From positions 992,001-1,056,000 of the forward strand of contig CAXXDV010000003.1 of assembly GCA_963674745.2 (NCBI GenBank): a stretch of DNA of 64,000 bases, in the 5' to 3' direction. Position numbers and translations under genes: made by a program. The stretch is from Desulfosudaceae bacterium (lineage in GTDB: Bacteria; Desulfobacterota; Desulfobacteria; Desulfobacterales; Desulfosudaceae). The notes under the pieces were generated by a model. It was not told the origin of the DNA. It searched no databases and saw nothing but the letters and a program-made list of their open reading frames with translations. This document shows positions 11,342-24,896 of this stretch, in pieces (within the stretch, counting starts at the first letter, position 1; the number at the start of each line of letters is the position of its first letter).

Positions 11342-11992
11342 TTACTCTTTCTTCTCAATAAAGGACATGATCAACAGAAAAAAGAGATCGGCTACCCTGG
11401 TGACGTTTTCTTTCCGGGAATAGCCCACTTCATCCAGCAGTCCGTTATTGTAAAGACTGACAATACCGTGAAGCTGGCTCCATAACGATATTTGTAAAAT
11501 GCCGATATCTTGCGGAAGATTATATCCGGCCGCCTTAAATTCCATAACGCATTGACTCATTAGTTCCAGGCTTCGAAGAGTAGACTCACGTTCTCCGGCA
11601 GCTATCTTTTCCAGGACGGTTCCCACGTAGTAAGTGTATTTGGGTGCGGCCGAATCGAACATGACCTCGTAGTAATGGGGGGTGTAAAGGCCAAACTCCA
11701 CGTACGCCCGGATCATATTCCAGGCTTTTGTCTTGAGGTCTGAAACGGACCCGTAGGCGGCCGATATTTTTTCGTAAAGGATGTCACCAGCACGCTTGCG
11801 GATGGCAATATTGATCTCGTCTTTATTGGCAAAATAGTAATACAGGCTTGGCGCGGCCATGTTCATACGGGCCCCGATTTTTCGCAGGGAAAGATTCTGA
11901 AAGCCATCTTCTTTGACGACCTGTGCTGCAACGTCAATTATTTTGTTTTTAAATTCGTTTATTTCCTGATCATTCCGTGGCGTCTTGGGCAT
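11342..11992 (-). CDS. TetR/AcrR family regulator (WHG-type C-terminus)
   Basis: GFQNLSLRKIGARMNMAAPSLYYYFANKDE HTH; LWSQLHGIVSL. Confidence 0.92.
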   Translation of the reverse strand: MPKTPRNDQEINEFKNKIIDVAAQVVKEDGFQNLSLRKIGARMNMAAPSLYYYFANKDEINIAIRKRAGDILYEKISAAYGSVSDLKTKAWNMIRAYVEFGLYTPHYYEVMFDSAAPKYTYYVGTVLEKIAAGERESTLRSLELMSQCVMEFKAAGYNLPQDIGILQISLWSQLHGIVSLYNNGLLDEVGYSRKENVTRVADLFFLLIMSFIEKKE

Positions 11993-12020
11993 TTCCCCTT
12001 TCCTTTTCCTTGATTTTAAT

Positions 12021-12049
12021 CTAACACATGTTCGTCTAACAGCTGTTAG
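12021..12049. promoter_or_regulatory. Tandem palindromic operators upstream of tetR (probable autoregulation)
   Basis: ctaacagctgttag perfect palindrome 12036-12049 plus degenerate ctaacacatgttcg 12021-12034; minus-strand TTGACA near 12070. Confidence 0.7.
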
Positions 12050-12282
12050 GTATATGAGTCGTTGATTTATGTCAAGTAAATAATGAAGAAACGAAACGGA
12101 TTCAATTCATGGATGAAATCATGGGGAGTCGGGAATCCAGTATAAAAACCTCTTCTTTCGTTATTGCGACCCGAACCTGCCGATTCCCGGGTTATCTATT
12201 TAATTACTTTCTGGAAGGTTGAGGCTATCCGTCGCATTGCCTGTGGGTTTCAACCAGGAAGCCGGAATGACCAAGCACAGGC

Positions 12283-12365
12283 ATTTTCTCCCTGGGTTGT
12301 AGGGGAGAACTTTTTCATGCCTTACCCCTTGTGATAATCGACGATCTCAACTTTTAATAAGAGCC
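12283..12365 (-). pseudogene. Remnant of a higBA-type TA junction
   Basis: Minus strand reads ...KVEIVDYHKG* then MKKFSPTTQGE, resembling the HigB killer-family C-terminus (VEIVDYH) and HigA N-terminus (PxHPGE). Confidence 0.55.
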
Positions 12366-12485
12366 ATGCGGAACGTTTCGGTTTTACGAAAGAATAGGGT
12401 TGTAATATTGATTAATTACGGTGTAATATCGTTAGGGTTGTTTGAGGGGCGCAGTCTTATAAGTATTTGAAATTATTTAAAAAAA

Positions 12486-12516
12486 TGGCGGAAGTGCATG
12501 GGAATCGAACCCACCC
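12486..12516 (-). mobile_element. att core: 31-bp duplicate of tRNA-Sec 3' end inside attP-like site (12366-12593)
   Basis: tggcggaagtgcatgggaatcgaacccaccc identical to 23585-23615; tgcggaacg motifs at 12367 and 12570/12581. Confidence 0.92.
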
Positions 12517-12656
12517 TTAAGTTTTTAACTATTTGATAATAAATCAAAATTTTTATAACCTGCTTTTTTTGCGGAACGTTTGCGGAACGAATTTTCAATA
12601 GCACAATCGATTTGAAATTATGCAATAGACTTTTTTTAAAAAAGAACAAGAATCAG

Positions 12657-12688
12657 TTGACAATATGTCAGATCTGACATAATATAAT
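12657..12688 (+). promoter_or_regulatory. sigma70 promoter with 18-bp palindromic operator, TA copy 1
   Basis: TTGACA-17-TAATAT; tatgtcagatctgacata (12664-12681) between the boxes. Confidence 0.85.
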
Positions 12689-12692
12689 ATTC

Positions 12693-13052
12693 ATGAGTCC
12701 AAGCGATAAACCACTCGTGTGGCTGCAAGGCGAAATTACAAGTCCGCCTTTTTCTTCAAATGCCCGAATTGAAGCGGGGTATTTATTACGGCAACTCCAG
12801 AAAGGCATAAAACTGTCTTTGCCTCAGTCGCGGCCAATGCCGTCAATTGGGGCTCGTTGCCATGAACTGAGGATAAACGATGAAGCAAGAACCTGGCGAA
12901 TCGTTTATCAGGTGCATAAGGATGCCATTTTGATCCTGGAGATTTTTGAGAAAAAGACAGGCAAAACTCCGAAATCAGTAATTGATGTCTGCAAACAAAG
13001 AATCAAATTCTATGAGGCAGACGTTAAGGAATGGGAAAAGAACAATGGATAA
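12693..13052 (+). CDS. Type II toxin, RelE/ParE superfamily (HigB/Gp49-like)
   Basis: SRPMPSIGARCHELRI..WRIVY..ILILEIFEKKTGKTP. Confidence 0.9.
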   Translation: MSPSDKPLVWLQGEITSPPFSSNARIEAGYLLRQLQKGIKLSLPQSRPMPSIGARCHELRINDEARTWRIVYQVHKDAILILEIFEKKTGKTPKSVIDVCKQRIKFYEADVKEWEKNNG

Positions 13053-13353
13053 GAAAAAAAAGAAAGCCATAGAGTCTAAGGGCTATAAGGTCGGCTCCGT
13101 GGATGAGCTTCTTGGCCTGAACGCTGATGAAATGGAATACATCGAATTAAAACTGTCCCTCAGCCAGGCTTTAACAAAGCACCGGAAGAAAAGCAAATTG
13201 ACACAGGCGCAGTTGGCCAAGCGGTTGAAATCCAGCCAGTCCAGGGTCGCAAAAATGGAAAACGGCGATCCCAGTGTTTCTGTTGATCTTCTGATAAAAT
13301 CCCTGCTGGCCTTGGGAGCCGACAAAAATAGCATCGCAAAAGCCATTATCTGA
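13045..13353 (+). CDS. Xre-HTH antitoxin (HigA-like)
   Basis: LTQAQLAKRLKSSQSRVAKMENGD; ATG 13045 overlaps the toxin end. Confidence 0.9.
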   Translation: MDKKKKKAIESKGYKVGSVDELLGLNADEMEYIELKLSLSQALTKHRKKSKLTQAQLAKRLKSSQSRVAKMENGDPSVSVDLLIKSLLALGADKNSIAKAII

Positions 13354-13523
13354 CTTGTCCTGAACAAACAAACTCCATTTCAAAGCACGGATCAAACTCA
13401 GGAGCGTGATTCATAGACGTCGTTTCAACTGTTTAGCTGTATTTCTAATCGATAATTTTGTTCCTGGATACATTTTTGAGGCATCAAAATTATCGTAAAC
13501 GTCACTCCAATACGGTGTTCCCA

Positions 13524-13899
13524 TCAACTCGAACACAGATTCACAACTCTTTTTCCAATATGCTTGGCCTCTTCAATTGCATTTAATGAAAATGATGCGC
13601 CAGGGCCTTGGAGCACATCCCCTTTGGCCAGCCCGTAACCAATGCTTCCCCCTGCTACTTTCATGTCATGAATTGAAAAAAAACTCTGCAAAAAGCTGAG
13701 GGCCTGCCAGCCACCGACCCTTCTTGTGGCGACAATGGCAGCAGCGACTTTCCCCTTCAGCTTCCGGGAAAACAAATATGAATACGTTCTGTCAATAACC
13801 GCTTTTGCCTGGGCACTGACATTAACAAAATATACCGGAGTTCCAAATATTATTCCGTCTACTTTTTCCATACAGTCAAATATTTGATGCATATCAGTA
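13524..13899 (-). pseudogene. 5'-truncated flavodoxin/NADPH-dependent FMN reductase (Isf-like)
   Basis: DGIIFGTPVYF..AQAKAVIDR..LKGKVAA; N-terminal flavin-binding/Cys region absent; sequence breaks at the repeat boundary 13900. Confidence 0.8.
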
Positions 13900-14019
13900 A
13901 TGCGGAACGTTTCGGTTTTACGAAAGAATAGGGTTGTAATATTGATTAATTACGGTGTAATATCGTTAGGGTTGTTTGAGGGGCGCAGTCTTATAAGTAT
14001 TTGAAATTATTATAAGAAA

Positions 14020-14050
14020 TGGCGGAAGTGCATGGGAATCGAACCCACCC
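14020..14050 (-). mobile_element. att core: second 31-bp duplicate of tRNA-Sec 3' end inside attP-like site (13900-14124)
   Basis: Identical 31-mer; arm motifs at 13901 and 14104/14115. Confidence 0.92.
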
Positions 14051-14189
14051 TTCAATTTTTAACTATCTGGTATTAAATAGGATTTTTGATAATCCGCCTT
14101 TTTTGCGGAACTTTTGCGGAACGAATCCTCAATAGCACAATCGATTTGAAATTATGCAATAGACTTTTTTAAAAAAGAATAAGAACCAG

Positions 14190-14221
14190 TTGACAATATG
14201 TCAGATCTGACATAATATAAT
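14190..14221 (+). promoter_or_regulatory. sigma70 promoter/operator, TA copy 2
   Basis: Same TTGACA and tatgtcagatctgacata palindrome (14197-14214). Confidence 0.85.
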
Positions 14222-14225
14222 ATTC

Positions 14226-14585
14226 ATGAGTCCAAACGATAAACCACTGGTGTGGCTGCAAGGTGAAATTACAAGTCCGCCTTTTTCCTCAAATGCCCGA
14301 ATTGAAGCGGGGTATCTACTACGTCAACTCCAGAAAGGCATGAAACTGTCTTTGCCTCAATCGCGGCCAATGCCGTCAATTGGGACTCGTTGTCATGAGC
14401 TGAGGATAAACGATGAAGCAAAAACCTGGCGAATTGTTTATCAGGTGCATAAGGATGCCATTTTGATCCTGGAGATTTTTGAAAAAAAGACAGGCAAAAC
14501 TCCGAAATCAGTAGTTGATGTCTGCAAACAAAGAATCAAATTCTATGAGGCAGACGTTAAGGAATGGGAAAAGAACAATGGATAA
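14226..14585 (+). CDS. RelE/HigB-like toxin, copy 2
   Basis: 119 aa, a few substitutions versus copy 1. Confidence 0.9.
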   Translation: MSPNDKPLVWLQGEITSPPFSSNARIEAGYLLRQLQKGMKLSLPQSRPMPSIGTRCHELRINDEAKTWRIVYQVHKDAILILEIFEKKTGKTPKSVVDVCKQRIKFYEADVKEWEKNNG

Positions 14586-14886
14586 GAAAAAAAAGAAAGC
14601 CATAGAGTCTAAAGGCTACAGAGTCGGCTCCGTGGATGAGTTTCTTGGCCTGAGTGCTGATGAAATGGAGTACATCGAATTAAAACTGTCCCTCAGTCAG
14701 GCTTTAACAAAGCACCGCAAGAAAAGCAAATTAACACAAGCGCAGTTGGCCAAGCGTTTAAAGTCCAGCCAGTCCAGGGTCGCAAAAATGGAAAACGGTG
14801 ATCCCAGTGTTTCTGTTGATCTTCTGATAAAATCACTGCTGGCTCTGGGAGCCGACAAAAATAGCATCGCAAAAGCCATTATCTGA
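14578..14886 (+). CDS. Xre-HTH antitoxin, copy 2
   Basis: 102 aa, 3 substitutions versus copy 1. Confidence 0.9.
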   Translation: MDKKKKKAIESKGYRVGSVDEFLGLSADEMEYIELKLSLSQALTKHRKKSKLTQAQLAKRLKSSQSRVAKMENGDPSVSVDLLIKSLLALGADKNSIAKAII

Positions 14887-15004
14887 GATTAATTAGCGTT
14901 GTTTCCTGTTCGGTTTGGTCTATATTTCGCCCAAAGGGAATCCCAAGCTTTAATTCTTTGGCTTTCCGTTCCACAAAACAATTGATCATGGCCGGTATAT
15001 CCTC

Positions 15005-15028
15005 TGCGGAACGTTTGCGGAACGAATT
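15005..15028 (+). repeat. Isolated arm-motif doublet without tRNA core
   Basis: tgcggaacgtttgcggaacgaatt identical to 12570-12593. Confidence 0.85.
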
Positions 15029-15119
15029 CGAAATAATTTATCGCAAATATATTCTTTTTTGACTTCATAAATTTTCCCCATGAATTTTCTTGTTTTTCGA
15101 TCCTGAAGCGCAATACATT

Positions 15120-17780
15120 TTATTCATCATCATTTTCGCCACAATTCACTCCCGATTGTAAACTTGTCAAAAAACAACCACCGCCACTGCCACTGCCGGT
15201 GTTGCCGCCATCCGTGGAATTGTTGTCCTGTCCGTTTGTCCCACTTATCACGGACCCGGTAACGCGCATGGCGATGGAATAGAGGCCGGAACGGGTGGTG
15301 ATAAAAAGGGTGCTGTTGTCCGCCCCCCCAAAACAGGCATTGGTCACCTGGCCGGGTGCGCTGATGGTTTCAATCCAATCCCCCTTGTCATTAAACACCA
15401 GCACGCCGTTCTCGCACAGATAAACATTATTCTCATTGTCAATGGTCATGCCGTCAGCGCCGATATAGGCGAAAACCTGCTTGTCCGCGAGGCTTCCGTC
15501 ATTGTTAATGGTATAATGGTATGTTACTCCGGCGCCATGGTCCGTTACATAAAGAATCGTTCCGTCTGCAGTGCCGACAATACCGTTCGGACGGATCATG
15601 TCATCAATGACGCGAACAACCGATCCGCGGTCGGGAGTGATATAATACACGTGCTGGCCGTCCTGTTGCAAAGTTGAGGAGAAATAGAGTGGATCCGTGA
15701 AATAAACACCGCCGTCCGGGCTTATCCAGAGGTCATTTGGCTCATTAAACGGAACATTATTATAGGTACCGGCGATGATGGTTGTGTTGCCGGCATCATC
15801 AATGGAAGCCAGGCATCCGCCAGTCCCCTGGCAGGCCAGAAGATTGCCGCTTGTGTCAAAATACAGGCCGTTGGTTCCCATGGAATTTGTCAAAAATGTC
15901 GACAACACTCCTTCCACGGACCATTTATAAATAAGATTCGAGGAAATATCTGAAAAAAAGATATTACCCCCGTCATCTGCAGCCGGTCCTTCGGCAAACG
16001 AGAAATTCTCTGCCAAAGAGGTCACCGTCCCCCCGGGAGCCACAACGCTTCCGGTATCATCCGTTTTAAAAAGAAAATCCGTGTTTTCAATGACCGGCAT
16101 ATCGATTTTTGAGGCGTACAGCCAGGCGCCGGAACAGTCATACACACTGGGATTTTCCTGATAATCCGGAAAGTTTTCATAATACCCCGTGCGGAGTGCC
16201 ATCAGGGTTTCTGCCTGGGTGCCGGACAGGCTGTTGCCCACCGCCGCAAAGTTGGTGGCATAGTGGTACATCATGGCACCTTCATATGCCCCGTACTGCC
16301 GAACCAGGGCAATAACATCGTCTTTGGAAACAGGCGTACCATTCATGAAAAGCCGCAGCTTTTCAGCTGTTTTCTGCCTTTGTAAGACAATGTTGTTCAA
16401 GTCTGTTCTCTGGATATCCACCAGGCCGGTTATCAGGCTCGCTTGAGTTTCATCGAGTGCGTCAAGAAATGCCTGTCCCATGTCCGCGGTAAGGTTGGTG
16501 TCAATGGTCACGGCTTCCCTTGCTATTAAGGGCGGGATGTCTTTCATGTAAAAAGAGCCAAAGTAGGTCCCGTGGCGTTCCGGACAGAAATAGGTGTCTC
16601 CTTCAACAGATCCCAGGTACCAGGCAAACAGCTGTGTGGCATAAGTGCTGACCAGCACCCGGCCGTCACTCACGGTAAGGCCGGACAGATCGACAGGATC
16701 TGCCGCCGGCCACTCTTCATTGGCAATGGTCCCGCCTTCACCCGCCTGTTCGAACAGGTTATTAAATTCGTCCAGCAAATCAGAAAGGGCTGTTTTCTGG
16801 GCATCGGTCAATCCCACCACAATGCCGCCGAGCACATTAGCCCTGGAGTAACTGATGTCCGCATCAATTTCATACAAATCTGCCGTGAATTCTTTTAACG
16901 CATCTTTATCCAGGCCTGTTGTTCCTTCCGGCAGGTCATTTTCCAGAAGACGGATGAACGCCTCGATCATGACAAATCGTTTATATCCGTATGCATCTAC
17001 CTGCCATGCCTGAGTATTGGCCAGGTCCACCAGGGCCTGAACCTGGGCATCGGTTAGAATCGACAGGACGCTGTCTGAAATTCTGCCGGCAAATTCCGTG
17101 TTATGGCCGAATCCGTTGGGTGTGATGTCCCGTAAATACTGGAATCCGAAAAAGTCGGATACTTTGCCGGGCGGAAAAAAGGTATTGGAGCAAAAATCGC
17201 TGGTCAGAAATGCCAGCGCGGAAAATGCAATTGTTTTCATCTGGGCTTCATCCCCGATGGCCTGGGTAATGGAGATCCCAGCTTCGGTTGTATCCGTTGG
17301 ATTGTTTGCATCCGGGGGGTCAGTATCTCCTGTATTTTCCGAATTTGCAAAATATGCATTGCAGGCATCGCGGCAATATTTTCGGTCACCGCAGGCAAGG
17401 TTTGACGATTCATCGCAATAGGTTTTGCAGTCTGCCTCGTTGTCAAGTCCGATCATCGTTATATAATCATAATCAGGCCCCAGAACGGAAGGGGCTTCTA
17501 CGGTGATCAAATCGGTATTATTGTCAAACCCTTCTCCTGTTTGTGTTTTAGCAATGCAGGCATCCCGGCAAGCTTGGCGTTCTTCGGCGTTTTTCAAGCA
17601 GTCACAACAATCTTTGCATTCAGGTTCAGACCCAGTATGATTCAGGCAGGTATCAGTCGTATTCTCTGATGCCATTGCGATGGATATGTGACAAAATATT
17701 CCGGAACAAATTCCAAGAACCATGAGTAAACAGATACACCAATGAAACCTTCTCATATAAAGTTCGTATTTTGGGGTCAT
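15120..17780 (-). CDS. Secreted multidomain protein: Cys-rich repeats + unknown helical domain + SMP-30/gluconolactonase domain + GGGCF C-terminal tail
   Basis: FSFAEGP, FNEPND, YFTDP, RPNGI, GADGMTID lactonase-propeller motifs; GSGGGCFLTSL tail. Confidence 0.85.
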   Translation of the reverse strand: MTPKYELYMRRFHWCICLLMVLGICSGIFCHISIAMASENTTDTCLNHTGSEPECKDCCDCLKNAEERQACRDACIAKTQTGEGFDNNTDLITVEAPSVLGPDYDYITMIGLDNEADCKTYCDESSNLACGDRKYCRDACNAYFANSENTGDTDPPDANNPTDTTEAGISITQAIGDEAQMKTIAFSALAFLTSDFCSNTFFPPGKVSDFFGFQYLRDITPNGFGHNTEFAGRISDSVLSILTDAQVQALVDLANTQAWQVDAYGYKRFVMIEAFIRLLENDLPEGTTGLDKDALKEFTADLYEIDADISYSRANVLGGIVVGLTDAQKTALSDLLDEFNNLFEQAGEGGTIANEEWPAADPVDLSGLTVSDGRVLVSTYATQLFAWYLGSVEGDTYFCPERHGTYFGSFYMKDIPPLIAREAVTIDTNLTADMGQAFLDALDETQASLITGLVDIQRTDLNNIVLQRQKTAEKLRLFMNGTPVSKDDVIALVRQYGAYEGAMMYHYATNFAAVGNSLSGTQAETLMALRTGYYENFPDYQENPSVYDCSGAWLYASKIDMPVIENTDFLFKTDDTGSVVAPGGTVTSLAENFSFAEGPAADDGGNIFFSDISSNLIYKWSVEGVLSTFLTNSMGTNGLYFDTSGNLLACQGTGGCLASIDDAGNTTIIAGTYNNVPFNEPNDLWISPDGGVYFTDPLYFSSTLQQDGQHVYYITPDRGSVVRVIDDMIRPNGIVGTADGTILYVTDHGAGVTYHYTINNDGSLADKQVFAYIGADGMTIDNENNVYLCENGVLVFNDKGDWIETISAPGQVTNACFGGADNSTLFITTRSGLYSIAMRVTGSVISGTNGQDNNSTDGGNTGSGSGGGCFLTSLQSGVNCGENDDE

Positions 17781-17835
17781 TTCACTTTCTCCTTATAACA
17801 ATTTGATGATGTGTATTATTTACTCGAATCTGATT

Positions 17836-18189
17836 TTATTTTTGATCCGGCGGCGGGTCAAGGCAGCTTATCTTTCTCGGATCAAAACCCGTAGCTTTAA
17901 TGGCTTCCTGCTGCGCCGCCCCCCGCCGGATTCCGGCTTCCCTGAAGGCGTTATTTATTGCTTTGGCATCGGCTGCGGTTAGAGAATCTGGATTATACTT
18001 AGACAGTATGTCCGCAACTTTTGATTTCAATTCATCCGTCAGGGTCTGCCCTGATTTTTTAGCCGAATTATTATAATTCCCGGTTCCAATTTCTGAGGTG
18101 TTTAACTCCTGGGCAAAAGATACATTGCAAAGATGGATGGTCAATATTGCACAGCCCCATGTTAATACGTTTTTAAAATTCTGTTTCAT
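17836..18189 (-). CDS. Small secreted hypothetical protein
   Basis: AGGAGG RBS, signal peptide ending SFA. Confidence 0.75.
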   Translation of the reverse strand: MKQNFKNVLTWGCAILTIHLCNVSFAQELNTSEIGTGNYNNSAKKSGQTLTDELKSKVADILSKYNPDSLTAADAKAINNAFREAGIRRGAAQQEAIKATGFDPRKISCLDPPPDQK

Positions 18190-18265
18190 TTTGGCCCTCC
18201 TTATTCTTTTGGTTTTAAAAGGTGACTTTGGTTACCCAATGTTGATTAGAGTATAAAAATGAATT

Positions 18266-18423
18266 ATGAACTGAAGATGAATTGACAAAAAAATTTTTAT
18301 TTTAATTTTTTAGCCTCAAAACATTAAACTGAGCAAATGTGTTATTTTAGATTTCGAGCATTCGCTTTAATGACCAAAAATGAACTTCATATTAATGAAA
18401 TGCGTTTTTCATTTTCGGTTCAT
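18266..18423. promoter_or_regulatory. Divergent promoter region with OmpR-type TTCAT-N6-TTCAT direct repeats on each strand
   Basis: atgaa at 18266/18277 (minus) and ttcat at 18408/18419 (plus), each ~10 bp upstream of a -10-like hexamer. Confidence 0.55.
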
Positions 18424-18514
18424 TTTTGTTGTATATGATAAGGACGGGAAAATGATGGGAATAATTATTCAGGTGTTATTGTTTTAAATTCATTATCCTG
18501 AAAGGTGGAACGTC

Positions 18515-19186
18515 ATGCGAATTCTAATAGTCGATGATGACCAAAAACTATGTGATGTGTTGAAACGCGGTCTGGAAGAAGAAGCATACGCCGTTGATTG
18601 TGTATTTAACGGTGACGACGGGGAATATTACGCTGAAAACACCCCTTATGATCTTATTATATTAGATGTTATGATGCCGAAAAAAAATGGGACTGATGTT
18701 TGTAAATATCTTCGCCAGAAAAAAATAAACACATGCATCCTCATGCTTACGGCAAAAGATGCCGTGGAGGATCGTGTCAAAGGGCTCAATAGCGGGGCGG
18801 ATGATTATTTGATAAAACCCTTTTCATTTGATGAATTACTGGCAAGGGTGAGAGCTCTTTTAAGGCGTGATGGCGTTTCAAAATCATCTGAGTTAAAGGC
18901 TGATGACCTGTCACTTAATACTACAACGCGCGAAGTGAGGTGGAAAGAACAACTTATTAATCTGACAACTAAGGAATATTCAATTCTTGAATACCTGATG
19001 AGCAATCCCAATGCTGTTATAACTCGGACAATGATTGAAGAACATGCATGGGATTATGAGTTGGATAGCATATCAAATTTGGTCGATGTTTACATTCGAC
19101 GGATAAGACAGAAAATTGATCCGGAACAAGGTAAAAAAATCATTCAAACCATCCGTGGGGCCGGTTACCGGATAAACGTCTTATGA
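18515..19186 (+). CDS. OmpR/PhoB family response regulator
   Basis: ILIVDDD, LDVMMP, LTAKD, GADDYLIKPF, winged helix QTIRGAGY. Confidence 0.95.
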   Translation: MRILIVDDDQKLCDVLKRGLEEEAYAVDCVFNGDDGEYYAENTPYDLIILDVMMPKKNGTDVCKYLRQKKINTCILMLTAKDAVEDRVKGLNSGADDYLIKPFSFDELLARVRALLRRDGVSKSSELKADDLSLNTTTREVRWKEQLINLTTKEYSILEYLMSNPNAVITRTMIEEHAWDYELDSISNLVDVYIRRIRQKIDPEQGKKIIQTIRGAGYRINVL

Positions 19187-20715
19187 AATTCCTTCACAGT
19201 ATTACCTTCCGCGTCACACTCTGGTACCTGGCGATACTTGGTGTAATGATGGTGCTACTTGGAATCGGTGTTTATGTGACCCTTTCCAACAGGTTGTATC
19301 ATCATCTTGATGTATCCCTTAAAGAGAGAGCCGAGCACCTTTCCGAGTTCCGCGATGTTCTGTCCATCATTGCCGGAGGAATGTTTGAAGACCAAGCGGG
19401 GGAGTATATTACTTTTTACTATTACGAGGGTAACCGGTTAAAGCATATCGCTCCTAAAGATAATGTATTCCCGATGACAAGAGAAGTGATCGACCGTGTA
19501 TTATCAGGAGAAACGCTGTTTGAAAATGTTGATATACCTCAAAAAGGATTGTTTCGGGTTCTCATTTCCTCATTCACGCCAGATAATCCTGTAGTCAGAC
19601 CAGATCAATTCAGGAGAGAAAGACAACAGCCTAATTATGAACGAAGGAGAGATGGAGGATTTAAATCTCCCCCTCGTCGTGATGACAGACCCAATAGACC
19701 ACCTCCCCCTGACTATAAAGAAAGATATGATCCCAGAATGAAGGTTACATCAGCGGCTCTTGTTATTGCACGCCCCACTAAGGATATAGAAAGTGTTCTC
19801 AGACAACTTTTTCATATTCTGGTAATCGCCATCCCTTTGACACTGCTGTTGGCCGGTGGAGGCGGAATTTTTTTGGCACATCGGGCATTAACCCCGGTGA
19901 AAAGGATCTCAGACACAGCGCGTCAAATTGAAGAAAGCGATTTGAGTCGTCGCATTGATGTGCGCACAAAGGACGAACTGGGCTTTCTTGCCGAAACTCT
20001 CAACCAGATGATCGAAAGACTGGAAAATGCATTCAAACGACAGAAAGAATTCACCAGCGATGCATCACATGAACTTCGTGGTCCCCTTGCCGTGATCCAG
20101 GCAGAAGCTTCATTGTCTCTCCGCAAAGCGCGGGAACCACAGGAATATAAAAAAACGCTTAAAGTGATTTCCGGTGAAGCTGAACGTATGGCTTTTTTAA
20201 CCAATCAGCTTCTTGAACTTGCCCGGATGGATGCCGATAAGGAGCCTGATGTATCTGAATCAATAAACTTGAAAGAATTTCTTCAGAACATCTGTTCCGA
20301 TATAACAATTTTATGTCAAGAAAAGAACCTGGAATTACAGACACATCTTTTAAGTCAAGTTCAGATTAAAGGGGATCGAAAAAGTTTACAAAGAATGTTT
20401 TTTAACATTTTGAATAATGCAATTAAGTATACGAAAGAAGGCGGGACAATTCGTCTTGCTTTGGAAGAAAAAGACCACATGGCCGAGGTCTCTATTTCAG
20501 ACACGGGAATTGGTATACAAAAGGAAAGTTTGCCATATATTTTTGAGAGATTTTATCGTGTTGATAAAGCAAGATCCCGCAGTGAAGGAGGAAGCGGTTT
20601 GGGTCTCTCCATATGCAAACAGATCATTGATGTTCACAAGGGACGAATCGATGTTAACAGCCAAATGGGTAAAGGGAGCACCTTCACCATTAAATTGCCT
20701 ATTATAACAAATTAG
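19183..20715 (+). CDS. Sensor histidine kinase (2 TM, HAMP, HisKA, HATPase)
   Basis: DASHELRGP H-box, NAIKY, DTGIG, GGSGLGL; Arg/Pro-rich periplasmic insert. Confidence 0.95.
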   Translation: MKFLHSITFRVTLWYLAILGVMMVLLGIGVYVTLSNRLYHHLDVSLKERAEHLSEFRDVLSIIAGGMFEDQAGEYITFYYYEGNRLKHIAPKDNVFPMTREVIDRVLSGETLFENVDIPQKGLFRVLISSFTPDNPVVRPDQFRRERQQPNYERRRDGGFKSPPRRDDRPNRPPPPDYKERYDPRMKVTSAALVIARPTKDIESVLRQLFHILVIAIPLTLLLAGGGGIFLAHRALTPVKRISDTARQIEESDLSRRIDVRTKDELGFLAETLNQMIERLENAFKRQKEFTSDASHELRGPLAVIQAEASLSLRKAREPQEYKKTLKVISGEAERMAFLTNQLLELARMDADKEPDVSESINLKEFLQNICSDITILCQEKNLELQTHLLSQVQIKGDRKSLQRMFFNILNNAIKYTKEGGTIRLALEEKDHMAEVSISDTGIGIQKESLPYIFERFYRVDKARSRSEGGSGLGLSICKQIIDVHKGRIDVNSQMGKGSTFTIKLPIITN

Positions 20716-20824
20716 ATCAGCTATTCCAGATTATGTCTATTTCGACATTGGGCTTTTTCTGAGGATGAGGATTGACGAATTCAATATGCTGAATTAGGGG
20801 TTATGGATAAATCTTCAACGTTTC

Positions 20825-21060
20825 TTGACGGCTTTTTAGACGGCTTTTAACGCCCGTAAACGGCTTTTGGTGGTCGAAAAAGCCAATAAAATCAAGTAGA
20901 ATACGCTTTGGAACGCTCTGTCACGCCGGAGGTCGCGAGTTCGAGTCTCGTCACTCCCGCCATTATACAAATCAAATCCAGTTGGTTATAAACTGCCTGG
21001 ATTTTTTGTTTTTACAGGTTATGGTCCAAGCGGCTTATTAGACGGCTTTTTTGACGGCTC
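20825..21060 (+). mobile_element. attP-like site with tRNA-Asp 3' half (20918-20962) and GACGGCTTT arm repeats on both sides
   Basis: ctgtcacgccggaggtcgcgagttcgagtctcgtcactcccgcca runs from anticodon loop (GTC) to CCA; arms at 20825, 20837, 20857 and 21028, 21039, 21051. Confidence 0.88.
20974..21007 (+). terminator. Intrinsic terminator after the tRNA-Asp fragment
   Basis: aaatccag...ctggattt followed by T-tract. Confidence 0.65.
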
Positions 21061-21244
21061 AAGCACAGTTTTTTCTCTCGCTTTATGTATGGCTTTTCTT
21101 ACAATAACAATCGGATATACAGGAGACGGTATCCGGTTAACATAGCCGGCGGTCGCCCTCCCCTTTCTTTGAAAGTACCTGTAAATCGAAATTATCAATC
21201 ATGAGCGAATAGCGATCTTTGGGTCGTGACGCCTTTTTTTGTGG

Positions 21245-21984
21245 GATAACGTACAATATTTTTCGCACATTTTTTAATGAAGAAGTAGCCCTCGATCTGG
21301 TAAGGGTTGGGTAGACCAAGACTCAACCACAAAACAGAAGGAGAGCTACGAATGCAGGATACCAAAAGGTGTGCGGGAAGCAAGGGTTTAAAATCAGGGC
21401 AAATAATCAAGATCGAGCAGGGGCAGTTAAAGAAGCACTTGGACAAGGTGGTCAGAGGGACGGTGGAGGAGACGTTGAACGCCTTGCTGGATGCTGAGGC
21501 GGATCAACTGTGTAAGGCCAGGCGATATGAACACACCAAAGCCCGCAGAGATACCCGGGCAGGATTTTATACCCGTAAGCTGGAGACAAAGGCCGGAGAG
21601 GTTGAGCTCAAGGTGCCCAAGTTGAGGACGCTGCCGTTTGAGACCGCCATTATCGAGCGTTACCGGAGACGGGAGAGTTCGGTAGAAGAAGCGCTGATAG
21701 AGATGTATCTGGCCGGCATATCGGTCAGGCGGGTGGAAGACATTACCGAGTCCTTGTGGGGAACAAGAGTCAGTCCTTCAACGGTAAGCAACCTGAACAA
21801 GAAAGTATACGGTCGTATCCGGAAGTGGCTCGAAGAACCGATCACCGGTGATTATGTATATGTTTTTTTGGACGGGATCTGGCTGAAGCGGTCCTGGGCC
21901 GGGGAAGTAAAGAACGTCAGCGTTCTGGTAGCGATAGGAGTTGACCGGTTCGGTTATCGCCAGGTATTGGGTGTTAAAGAAGGC
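21245..21984 (+). mobile_element. IS256-family element, left end and 5' half of transposase (ATG 21352), truncated
   Basis: FETAIIERYRRRESSVEEALIEMYLAGISVRRVEDIT and YVFLDG are IS256/mutator motifs; probable IRL near 21245-21270; C-terminal half and right end absent. Confidence 0.9.
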
Positions 21985-23084
21985 GGCATTTCTGTCCCTC
22001 CTGCCACCAGAAGCGGGTGGTGGAATTCGGCGAGTGGCTGTGCACGGATGTGCTCAAATCCGTTCCCCATCGGCAATGGGTATTCTCCATCCCCAAACGG
22101 CTGCGGCCCTGGTTTTCTCATGACAGAAAACTGCTGGCCGGGCTGTCACGGTGTGCCTGGAAGGTTTTCTGCCAATATCTGAAGCACTCTGTTCCGCATG
22201 ACGATGCCGTGCCCGGCGGCGTGGTGGCGGTGCAGACCTTTGGGGACTTCCAGAACTTTAACCCGCATCTGCACATTATCGCCACGGACGGCTGCTTTTA
22301 CGGGCAGGGGCAGTTCCAGGTGGGGAGCCAGCCGGTTGCTGATGACCTGACGCCGCTGTTCCGGCAGGAGGTGTTCAAGCTGCTCAAATCTTACGGCCTG
22401 TCGGAACGGGTCATAGAAAACATGATGGGCTGGCATCACAGCGGGTTTAATGTTTACTGCGGTCCGGCCATCTGGCCGGGCGACAACACCGGCGTCGAGA
22501 ACCTGGCCCGGTATATTATTCGGGCGGCTTTTTCTCAGGAGCGGATGCAATACATCCCGGCCTCAAGCGCATCCGACGGCCGGGCCAAAGTCATTTATCA
22601 GTCTAAAAACGGCCGCGAGCGCAAAGTGTTTCCGGCCCTGGACTGGCTGGCCCAAATGACCACGCACATCCCCAACCGCAGGGAACATATGGTCCGTTAT
22701 TATGGATACTACAGCAACAAGAGCCGGGGCCAGCGGAAAAAAGCGGACCAGGATGACGACATTGCCAACATCATCGAGACGGACCTGCCCAATAAGGCCT
22801 TCAGAAAATCCTGGGCGCGGCTGATACAGAAGATATATGAAGTTGATCCGCTGTTATGCCCCAAGTGCCAGGGGGAAATGAAGATCATCAGTTTTATAGA
22901 GGAGCAGGCCGTCATCAAGCAGATACTTCAGCACCTTGGTTTATGGGAGACCCGCAACAACGACCCGCCGACACCGCAACTGAATGTTGTCCGGGAACTG
23001 ACCTATCATCCTGCGCCTGACCAGGCACAGGATGATGACGGATACTGGCCACAGGTTCCCGATTATGGCTACTGGGCGGATTGA
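21981..23084 (+). pseudogene. IS91-family rolling-circle (Y2/HUH) transposase missing its N-terminus
   Basis: RRHFCPSC zinc-finger tail, FNPHLH HUH motif, LARYIIR, RYYGYYSN, DPLLCPKC. Confidence 0.9.
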
Positions 23085-23252
23085 TTATTTTAGAAATTCG
23101 GTCCCGGCGGCACAATAGAGCTGCCTCAAAAATCCCGCTTTTTCTGAAGTTTTTGTTGTCCTGACGGCTTTTGGGCTTTTTCTGCCTCACCTTGAAACGA
23201 CCTGCCAAATCCGCCCCAAACCGCACGTCAACATGTGGTGCCCTCAAAATCA

Positions 23253-23308
23253 TTGACACACAAACCCGGCCCTGCTATAGTTTACGACCATAAAAGCAAG
23301 TTCTTATC
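23253..23308 (+). promoter_or_regulatory. Outward sigma70 promoter and oriIS-like end of the IS91 element
   Basis: TTGACA-17-(TG-n)-TATAGT at 23253-23281; AAAAGCAAGTTCTTATC at 23292-23308 resembles the IS91/ISCR oriIS TTCCTAT end. Confidence 0.7.
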
Positions 23309-23382
23309 CATTTATCTGACCGACTTAAAGATACGCACCCGGCCAAGGCCGCGGCAAAAAGACAAACAATAATAATTCTCAT
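23309..23382 (-). pseudogene. 5' end of a lipoprotein gene interrupted by the IS91 end
   Basis: GGGAGG RBS, MRIIIVCLFAAALAGC lipobox, then runs into IS sequence. Confidence 0.6.
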
Positions 23383-23584
23383 GATTCCTCCCATGTTTTG
23401 AGTTTTTTAATAACCTCCGACCGGCCGGGTGCGGGCTGAATCCCCGGTCCCGACCGGCCGGGTGCCCCGGATGATTTTTTAATTTTAACTTTTTGGGAAA
23501 TCCTGTTATATAAATACGGAGAAGATGCGGAGAAGGAAAGAAGCAGATAAAAAAAAAATAAATACCTGAAAAATCAATAAAAAC

Positions 23585-23682
23585 TGGCGGAAGTGCATGG
23601 GAATCGAACCCACCCGGGACGGTGTTAGCGCCCCACACCGGATTTGAAGTCCGGGAGCATCACCAGAACGCTGCGCACTTCC
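23585..23682 (-). tRNA. selC: tRNA-Sec (UCA)
   Basis: 8-bp acceptor stem GGAAGTGC/GCACTTCC-GCCA, anticodon loop ctTCAaa, long variable arm, GTTCGATT T-loop. Confidence 0.97.
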
Positions 23683-23700
23683 ATGACCTGTTTTGTGCAT

Positions 23701-23729
23701 AAAGTAAACAGGAATGTGATATCTGTCAA
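23701..23729 (-). promoter_or_regulatory. sigma70 promoter of selC
   Basis: TTGACA-17-TACTTT on minus strand. Confidence 0.7.
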
Positions 23730-23759
23730 TGTATTTGTCTTTTTAAAAGGAAGGTTTTC

Positions 23760-24896
23760 ATGACGGTAAACACAAAGCGTCTGGCGGATACGTTCGACGC
23801 GCTGGTCAGAATTGACAGTGAATCAAGGGACGAGCGTGCGGTCTGTGAATTCATTTCCGGATTGTTTTCAAAGCTGGGCGCCCAGATCATAACCGATCAT
23901 TCACAGGCGCAAACCGGCAGCAACACCGGTAACCTGCTGGCACGGTTTGAGGGAAATCAGGGTCTGGAGCCCCTGCTGATCGGTGCGCACATGGATACGG
24001 TTACGCCGGGGCGGGGGATTATTCCGGTTTTCAAAGACGGGCTGTTCTCCAGCGAAGGTGATACCATTCTGGGCTCTGACGACAAGAGCGCCATTGCCAT
24101 CATGTATGAGGCCATGTGTGTGCTGCAAGAGGCCGGCGTTGATTTCTGCCCCCTGGAACTGGTTTTTACCGTGTGTGAAGAAATCGGTTTGATCGGTGCT
24201 AAACATTTTGATTTTTCCCTGTTGCGGGCCAAGAGCGGTTATATGCTGGATGCCTCAAACACGGCCGGTATCGTGACCCGGGCGCCGGCCGCCAATCGAC
24301 TGGAATTTGTGATTCACGGTAAAGATGCCCATGCCGGTGCCCATCCGGAAGACGGTGTCAATGCGATCTCAGTAGCCGCAAAAGCCATTGCCTGCCTTGA
24401 GCCCGGCCGGGTTGATGAAGAAACCACATTCAACATCGGCTTGATCCAGGGCGGTCAGGCGACTAACATTGTGCCGGCCCTGGTCACGGTCCGGGGAGAG
24501 GCCAGGAGTCAGCGGGATGACAAACTGGACGAGGTGACCGATCAGGTGGTAACGGTTTTTCGCGAAACGGTGGCCCGGGCGGCTGAACAGTCGAGGCATG
24601 AGGGATTCCCGTACCTCGAGGTTTCAGTCGTCAATGATTTTAAGAGTTTTTATATCCCGTCCGATCACCGGGTGGTCACAACCGCCGCCAGTGCCGCCCG
24701 TGTTCTGGGTTTCGATATGGTGGAAACCGTATCCGGCGGCGGGTCTGACGCCAATATATTCTTTCAGCACGGTATTACGGCCGGTGTACTGGGAACCGGT
24801 ATGAGGGATATTCATTCCGTACGCGAGAACGTTGCCCTTGATGACATGGCCCGGGCTACTGATCTGTTGATTGAAATCGTAAAAGCCTCTTCCTGA
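23760..24896 (+). CDS. M20 family metallopeptidase (PepT-like)
   Basis: AHMDTV, LGSDDKS, CEEIGL, GGGSDAN, IHSVRE. Confidence 0.93.
   Translation: MTVNTKRLADTFDALVRIDSESRDERAVCEFISGLFSKLGAQIITDHSQAQTGSNTGNLLARFEGNQGLEPLLIGAHMDTVTPGRGIIPVFKDGLFSSEGDTILGSDDKSAIAIMYEAMCVLQEAGVDFCPLELVFTVCEEIGLIGAKHFDFSLLRAKSGYMLDASNTAGIVTRAPAANRLEFVIHGKDAHAGAHPEDGVNAISVAAKAIACLEPGRVDEETTFNIGLIQGGQATNIVPALVTVRGEARSQRDDKLDEVTDQVVTVFRETVARAAEQSRHEGFPYLEVSVVNDFKSFYIPSDHRVVTTAASAARVLGFDMVETVSGGGSDANIFFQHGITAGVLGTGMRDIHSVRENVALDDMARATDLLIEIVKASS

Follow-up and report, generated by a model that had tools for sequence, protein, structure and literature searches.

Our comparative analyses suggest that the tRNA-Asp fragment found inside a selC-anchored island of the 64,000-nucleotide stretch of Desulfosudaceae DNA studied here (hereafter the window) is probably an orphan attP-type site with the arrangement P-O-P', the relic of a lost element whose tyrosine integrase targeted tRNA-Asp or tRNA-Glu, and that it now lies inert in an island devoid of integrase. 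An odd tRNA fragment would find its explanation as a docking site left behind by a mobile element since lost, and the comparison with other genomes defines a family of attachment sites and integrases with a searchable signature composed of GACGGCTTT arms, a 94-bp spacing and the core TCACGCCGG. In many bacteria, both sulfate-reducing and syntrophic, this family marks islands at the genes for tRNA-Asp and tRNA-Glu, defence islands and integrase-less islands included, and its signature is usable to delimit islands in metagenome-assembled genomes. Positions given without prefix are those of the window, while those of the 5.5-Mb genome that holds it (G000) are written as G000:contig:position.

The core of the site is a copy of the host's own gene. 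G000 possesses a single tRNA-Asp gene (G000:C3:1288249-1288326, minus strand), 275 kb away from the site and on the opposite strand, and positions 20918-20962 of the plus strand are identical to its 3' part at 45 out of 45 nucleotides. The copied part extends from C32 of the anticodon loop CTGTCAC through the CCA; the following base (T) agrees too, and the BLAST match between fragment and gene extends to 57 nt at 96.5% identity. The original prediction, made from the window alone, had described just such a 45-bp 3' half starting at the 7-nt anticodon loop and oriented opposite to selC, and both statements hold, the fragment being on the plus strand and selC on the minus strand. The sequence 5' of the anticodon loop is not tRNA-like, the left half-site ACGCT standing where the host gene has the anticodon-stem strand CCGGC. 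ARAGORN and Rfam detect selC alone in the window; as had been predicted, ARAGORN finds no full tRNA-Asp and PF00589 no integrase there, and neither a second tRNA-Asp fragment nor a full gene was found on the strand of the site anywhere in G000. The fragment carries the tRNA-Asp allele of its host (…GTCACTCCCGCCA), and the exact 45-mer is present in only 7 of the 401 genomes of the order, G000 counted. It occurs in G008, a member of the same family, and G007, from the same family again, shares the acceptor-end variant but differs at one further place; the 45-mer was not found in either of the two same-genus genomes, one of which is just 71% complete.

Table 1. Features of the tRNA-Asp attachment site and of the surrounding selC island (window positions)
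Feature	Positions	Strand	Remark
Outermost displaced selC 3'-end copy, far end of the island	12486..12516	-	
Second displaced selC 3'-end copy, internal junction of the selC array	14020..14050	-	
P arm, direct repeats: GACGGCTTT at 20827 and 20839, AACGGCTTT at 20859	20827..20867	+	
Conserved box AAAATCAAGTAGAATACGCT, between P arm and core	20888..20907	+	42-row alignment consensus gtaaAat.aGgtggAAT.acgct
Core: tRNA-Asp(GTC) 3' half, anticodon loop to CCA plus one base	20918..20963	+	host-identical
Hairpin and T-run, intrinsic-terminator-like	about 20967..21015	+	folding
P' arm: AGCGGCTTA at 21029, GACGGCTTT at 21041, GACGGCTCA at 21053, 12 bp apart	21029..21061	+	
Unrelated 180 bp in place of the integrase C-terminus of intact elements	21062..21241	.	
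Truncated IS256-family element	21242..22182	+	Transposase_mut profile positions 9-201 of 379
IS91-family (Y2_Tnp) element fragment	22017..23317	+	
selC (tRNA-Sec), anchor of the island	23585..23682	-	

Direct arm-type repeats flanking the core are a general feature of anticodon-loop attP sites. The window's site has three of them on each side, exactly as first described, with two perfect copies of GACGGCTTT upstream and one downstream, and both sets are homologous to the arms of integrase-bearing elements. It is the only place in G000 with at least three ACGGCTT within 150 bp, and the doublet pattern, when up to one mismatch is allowed, has a single occurrence in the genome. The conserved box AAAATCAAGTAGAATACGCT that precedes the core may be a site for an accessory protein or for the integrase itself. 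Downstream of the core, a simple terminator scan missed the hairpin that was detected by folding; together with its U-run it has a folding energy of -12.9 kcal/mol (z = -2.9; equally stable folds arise in 2 of 200 shuffles), in agreement with the replacement terminator that had been proposed, and it would terminate a rebuilt tRNA gene. The IHF-like tracts reported at the outset were not recovered, insofar as no match to the E. coli IHF consensus WATCAANNNNTTR was found on either strand of positions 20780-21120 with up to one mismatch.

The sequence downstream of the hairpin is informative as to the type of site. In an alignment of six rows (the window, the attL sites of G406, G403, G404 and G407, and the junction of G029), the core, the hairpin and the first two downstream repeats of the window (GCGGCTTATTAGACGGCTTTT) match the other rows, the attL of G406 reading GACGGCTTATTTGACGGCTTTT, and these two repeats correspond to the canonical P' doublet. 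All six rows have CGGCT and GACGGC without change, and homology ends exactly where the other rows enter the C-terminus of the integrase. The hairpin of the window is homologous to those of the G029 junction and of the G406 attL. Because the same stem is found in a host-side hairpin, in the flank of the attR L100, the hairpin alone cannot separate P' from B', and the downstream side is marked as P' solely by the doublet. Since the downstream sequence aligns with a P' arm up to the expected integrase, the site has the P-O-P' anatomy of an attP and not that of an attL or attR. The attP-like nature put forward in the original prediction is in this way sustained on both sides, by a P arm with the spacing of the family and by a downstream region that aligns with the P' arms of integrase-bearing tRNA-Asp attL sites. 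The third downstream repeat and the next 180 bp have no counterpart in any of the loci fetched.

The same arrangement recurs well beyond the window. A search of 41 related genomes returned four places matching from the first upstream repeat into the tRNA fragment, namely G029:C89 (80% identity over 181 nt), G028:C98, G016:C74 and G036:C404, and in the last two the fragment derives from tRNA-Glu(TTC), not tRNA-Asp. At the scale of the order, the doublet GACGGCTTTTNNGACGGCTTT (up to one mismatch) was found in 43 of 401 genomes, at 47 places, for 8 with the reversed control (counted from the table). Among the 30 loci listed for this doublet, 18, window included, consist of repeats followed by a tRNA 3' half, 5 have the doublet beside an integrase gene that ends there on the opposite strand, and the other 7 are coding-like or other sequence, including L043, in which the pattern found no doublet. 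An exact 21-mer retrieved 59 loci of genome_contigs, mostly labelled Desulfobacterales, Desulfosarcina, Syntrophales and Thermodesulfobacteriota, and no match in viral_contigs; the distant search of plasmids returned tRNA-Asp genes as the only matches. A strict pattern detects a tRNA 3' half with its anticodon loop in 41 of the 59 loci (anticodons TTC in 15, CTC in 14, GTC in 11 and ATC in 1), so that family sites are located at tRNA-Asp(GTC), tRNA-Glu(TTC) and tRNA-Glu(CTC). In 36 of these 41 loci, TCAC stands 94 bp from the start of the doublet, as it does in the window (20827 to 20921). As for the 18 loci without a pattern match, about nine appear by eye to hold tRNA halves that are mutated or truncated, and four or five, from unrelated organisms, seem to match by chance; L069, at least, is a P' site with an integrase next to it. 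The 42-row alignment, in which the window is 56-79% identical to the others, conserves the repeats, the box near AAAATCAGGTGGAATACGCT and the shared core TCACGCCGG. The window's site thus carries each of the family's marks: the P-arm doublet GACGGCTTTTTAGACGGCTTT at 94 bp before TCAC, the box, and a P' doublet whose repeats are 12 bp apart. Judging from these alignments, the upstream repeats, the box and the fixed spacing define a family widespread in the order of the window, the Desulfobacterales by record titles. We found no description of a GACGGCTTT-arm family in the literature on tRNA integration sublocations, on accretion and CIMEs or on Desulfobacter-type genomic islands, nor of its arm motif, its fixed 94-bp spacing or its use of three targets (Asp-GTC, Glu-TTC and Glu-CTC).

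Intact elements of this family share one layout, in which a full tRNA gene is followed by a hairpin, by the GACGGCT doublet and by the stop of a tyrosine integrase gene lying on the other strand. In G124:C17 and G275:C1, a full tRNA-Glu(CTC) is followed about 45-60 bp on by the doublet, then by the opposite-strand integrase stop, about 31 kb of DNA, a P arm of four repeats and, last, the tRNA fragment; in G354:C30 the element measures 1.5 kb and its integrase is truncated. All five of the genomes with Asp-type P arms that were checked have two same-strand tRNA-Asp 3' halves on one contig, 1.4-26.6 kb apart. Three of them (G403, G404 and G407) show the succession tRNA-Asp, hairpin, doublet and integrase of 362-372 aa; the integrase is truncated in G406, and G405 has no integrase and different repeats after the tRNA. 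The integrases of the Asp and Glu(CTC) elements are 57-91% identical to each other. The 362-aa G403 protein (L122:271-1359) possesses a Phage_integrase domain, scores below every curated NCBIfam cut-off and finds its closest solved relatives among XerC/XerA-like proteins (E about 1e-4). The GACGGCTTT motif is tied to both Asp- and Glu-targeting integrases, and the association with Asp-targeting integrases, on which the original prediction had made its reading depend, is confirmed and extends to Glu-targeting ones.

Sites with both arms and no integrase are found elsewhere. The closest relative of the window's site, at G029:C89, is a chromosomal P-O-P' without integrase, in which a short stretch still resembles an integrase end and which is directly followed by housekeeping genes (ppsA-like, carB, guaA, carA and aspS). 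L066 and L117 are P-O-P' junctions at tRNA-Glu, again without integrase, and the contig that holds L066 (G401:C9, 4133-94603) carries four same-strand tRNA-Glu(TTC) 3' halves, as would three elements in tandem, with sizes of about 52, 13 and 25 kb. In G016:C74 (L013, 7302-13411), a full tRNA-Glu(TTC) and a displaced fragment bound 6 kb of DNA devoid of integrase that encodes a TOTE-type AEP primase-helicase-PLD protein and a Fic/DUF4172 protein; the P' doublet is kept, and the whole looks like a small defence island that has preserved both arm sites. Integrase-less derivatives therefore persist.

Family elements encode a tyrosine integrase of 356-372 aa, whose putative arm-binding part would read the GACGGCTTT repeats, three or four of them in an array that begins 94 bp upstream of the crossover, with a further two about 110-135 bp downstream, while its catalytic part would exchange strands in the anticodon loop of tRNA-Asp(GTC), tRNA-Glu(TTC) or tRNA-Glu(CTC), presumably within the 7-nt loop. 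These three target tRNAs share TCACGCCGG. Because the element supplies its own tRNA 3' half and hairpin terminator, the target gene would stay intact after integration. In the window, all the DNA parts of such a system are present, the integrase gene expected after the P' doublet is gone, and fragments of IS256 and IS91 elements begin about 180 bp on.

The cognate integrase is absent from G000. None of the 21 PF00589 (Phage_integrase) matches of the genome falls in the window, and PF00239 (Resolvase, serine recombinase) has no match in the genome. The presence of an integrase remnant to the right of the site was considered and rejected: tblastn of a family integrase against 20900-23700 gave a best E of 0.49, six-frame translation of 21040-21320 disclosed no recombinase motif, and blastn of both flanks of the site against all the loci fetched returned 0 matches. 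No cognate integrase gene thus adjoins the P' arm. In G000 as a whole, a single relative of the family integrases is encoded, at C1:1188527-1189516 beside tRNA-Ala(GGC), with 28-34% identity. It should be added, as a separate observation, that the island at G000:C1:1188342-1189516 has the layout of the family, with tRNA-Ala(GGC), a hairpin, two direct repeats and the stop of an opposite-strand tyrosine integrase; its repeats are TGTGTGAAT, unlike GACGGCTTT.

The island that harbours the site is itself a patchwork of decayed elements and insertion sequences. The 31-nt 3' end of selC is present in three copies, the gene itself and two displaced copies, and in G001:C7, from the same genus, DNA matching window positions 12366-12516 directly abuts selC and an M20 peptidase gene, the two G001 matches overlapping by 59 nt that correspond to the repeated selC 3' end. 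Because its flanks adjoin in G001:C7, the island spans about 12516-23585; it is a clean insertion with respect to this genome, and the site therefore arrived inside inserted DNA. A rearrangement from the tRNA-Asp locus was likewise rejected, given that the two flanks of the island adjoin in G001:C7. The beginning of the island (12357-15120) is a 1534-bp tandem duplication whose copies, 92-95% identical, each comprise a pair of TGCGGAACGTTTGCGGAACG repeats, two genes of Gp49/HigB-like and HTH/HigA-like type, and one displaced copy of the selC 3' end. These TGCGGAACGTTTGCGGAACG repeats (12570, 14104 and 15005) are distinct from those of the tRNA-Asp site, and the third pair, at 15005-15046, stands without an adjoining selC fragment. 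Then come an SGL-domain protein gene, a response regulator and histidine kinase pair, the tRNA-Asp site and the IS fragments. The IS256-family transposase gene (21307-22182) is 90% identical to a second fragment at C1:662712-662949 and is overlapped by a Y2 transposase fragment (22017-23084); the IS91-family element ends near 23317, and its right end (about 23177-23317) recurs at many places of G000 and in relatives. No recombinase was found in the island (12516-23585). Contigs from three sequencing runs over 11500-24500 gave no informative joint, and where contigs ended loosely, at 20918 and 20952-20966, they represent tRNA-Asp genes from other members of the sampled communities. When the DNA of positions 15100-21240 was compared with 401 genomes of the order, homologues 66-76% identical were found in 14 other genomes, where they correspond to the SGL-domain protein and the two-component pair; none of these 14 genomes has the arm doublet, and G029 matched this query at its att site only.

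With its cognate recombinase missing from the genome, we regard the site as most likely a plain relic, and inert, since the integrase gene is gone from beside it and no cognate one exists elsewhere in G000. The original prediction had offered this relic of an earlier element next to a second address at which a circle excised from selC could re-integrate, and of the two it is the relic that we favour. Its well-preserved arms count against a relic reading, and the identity of the core to the host gene speaks against a long-dead one, for which drift would be expected; the site may be young, still selected or gene-converted. A core that equals the host allele would fit an element resident in the host lineage, or gene conversion between the copies. 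As to how the relic entered the island, we can conceive of the attP of a circular element joined to the island by something other than its own recombination, a putative route for which the adjoining IS fragments would be the obvious suspects, or of an internal junction of a former tandem array that was carried in, and both origins would leave the same sequence anatomy. The second of these, in which the core joins the P arm of one element to the P' arm of its neighbour and the piece is then brought into the selC island, is a possibility to be kept in mind, though we give it a good deal less than even weight. Such junctions are common, as illustrated by the four same-strand tRNA halves of G401:C9 and by L066 and L117, many P-O sites precede repeats of a second, TTTCCAACC-type family, and the closest relative at G029:C89 is chromosomal and beside housekeeping genes; against it, G000 shows no array at its tRNA-Asp gene, nor any same-strand full gene or second fragment, and the synteny of the island flanks with G001 excludes a local rearrangement reaching that locus.

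It is tempting to regard the site as a live second address, the selC island being a cis-mobilizable composite that inserts at tRNA-Asp once excised or when an integrase is supplied in trans. All the cis parts are indeed intact and correctly spaced, and because the core equals the uncommon tRNA-Asp allele of the host, integration there would rebuild a perfect gene; elsewhere, integrase-less islands are bounded by such sites (G016:C74, with its TOTE and Fic cargo), tandem arrays exist too, and PMC5704250 describes how decayed elements can be mobilised in cis through accretion. We nevertheless hold this to be unlikely. The cognate integrase is absent from G000, where unrelated DNA and IS fragments occupy its position; in the absence of a selC-type integrase the island cannot excise by itself; and the host tRNA-Asp gene, now located, bears no element. 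The cargo of 15.1-20.7 kb, which the original prediction proposed to look for at tRNA-Asp in other genomes, was found neither there nor beside such arms when 400 further genomes of the order were searched; these, like all the genomes searched, are samples of their groups. The site could work only if an incoming element provided the integrase in trans. More doubtful still in our eyes is a broader scheme, in which the island would be a two-address passenger without integrase, movable by two unrelated incoming integrases or able to invert 275 kb, and in which one integrase clade with a single arm code would serve three tRNA genes through their shared anticodon stem-loop; direct recombination between site and tRNA-Asp would presumably yield an inversion of this size because the two are inverted on one replicon. 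That the fragment is an ordinary attR, the displaced piece that bounds a tRNA-Asp-integrated element at its distal side, seems very improbable even if most family sites with this P arm are attR. An intact same-strand tRNA-Asp gene upstream, by which the original prediction would have recognised an attR, does not exist, the sole gene being the distant one on the other strand, and so no cognate tRNA in the same orientation bounds an island here, as the Islander principle would have it; moreover, a P' doublet and not host flank lies downstream, and the site sits inside DNA inserted at selC. Lastly, isolated GACGGCTTT 9-mers are fairly frequent (contig C3 has 73, both strands counted), which might evoke a tRNA pseudogene fragment beside fortuitous short repeats, but the cluster is the only one of its kind in G000 and shares its spacing, its box and both arms with dozens of loci in other genomes, so that a chance origin is hardly credible.

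Islands anchored at selC are known from enterobacteria, for example LEE and SHI-2. Like these, the island of the window would be an insertion at the selC 3' end with displaced copies of this end, but it resides in a sulfate-reducer-type genome, has no integrase and is made of small tandem toxin-antitoxin modules and a regulatory and cargo segment. The site resembles the anticodon-loop attP sites of tyrosine-integrase islands and prophages, in that the target gene is restored by a tRNA 3' half whose first base lies in the anticodon loop and in that its intact relatives encode a tyrosine integrase of the Phage_integrase family; it differs from them by having no integrase, by remaining whole where theirs are divided into attL and attR, and by its location within a selC-anchored island. 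This is the anticodon-centred class of Williams (2002) and of the Islander database. The Islander report gives 2083 islands with anticodon-centred attP sites and counts tandem arrays (PMC4383910). The review PMC5704250, which summarises Pavlovic 2004 and Bellanger 2011, describes CIMEs as decayed elements that have lost their integration genes, keep their att sites and can be moved by a related integrase, and tandem accretion of ICEs and IMEs as giving arrays with internal att junctions. The selC island is comparable to a CIME, since it has lost integration and transfer genes and retains selC with its two displaced 3'-end copies and the selC-type repeats, plus a further intact att site. Whereas a CIME keeps the attL and attR of one specificity, the window adds a nested P-O-P' of a second, unrelated specificity, that of tRNA-Asp. 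A CIME-style mobilisation of the selC island is putative, and no related element is present in G000.

Several minor observations emerged from these comparisons. The downstream flank of the host tRNA-Asp gene (G000:C3:1288180-1288248) shares the stretch TTTTTTnTTnTTACAGG..TCCA with positions 21001-21028 of the window, on the P' side (22 of 27 aligned) and at an equal distance from the CCA, a score reached by 1 of 1000 shuffles; too short to build on, this likeness may go back to an ancient integration event at tRNA-Asp. Repeats of a second family (TTTCCAACC, TTTCCCACC or TACCCACC, two copies with a few bases between them) lie after many tRNA-Asp or tRNA-Glu genes or fragments (L022, L023, L036, L042, L045, L055, L125, L126, L052 and L130), which suggests that a second integrase family uses the same tRNA targets, often in tandem with GACGGCTTT elements. 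Finally, the displaced fragments of two loci of G154 (L098 and L101), to which no weight was given in our reading, combine a TTC-type loop (CTTTCAA or CCTTCAC) with a tRNA-Asp-like body, reflecting either the decay of an Asp fragment or the recombination of a Glu-type element with tRNA-Asp.
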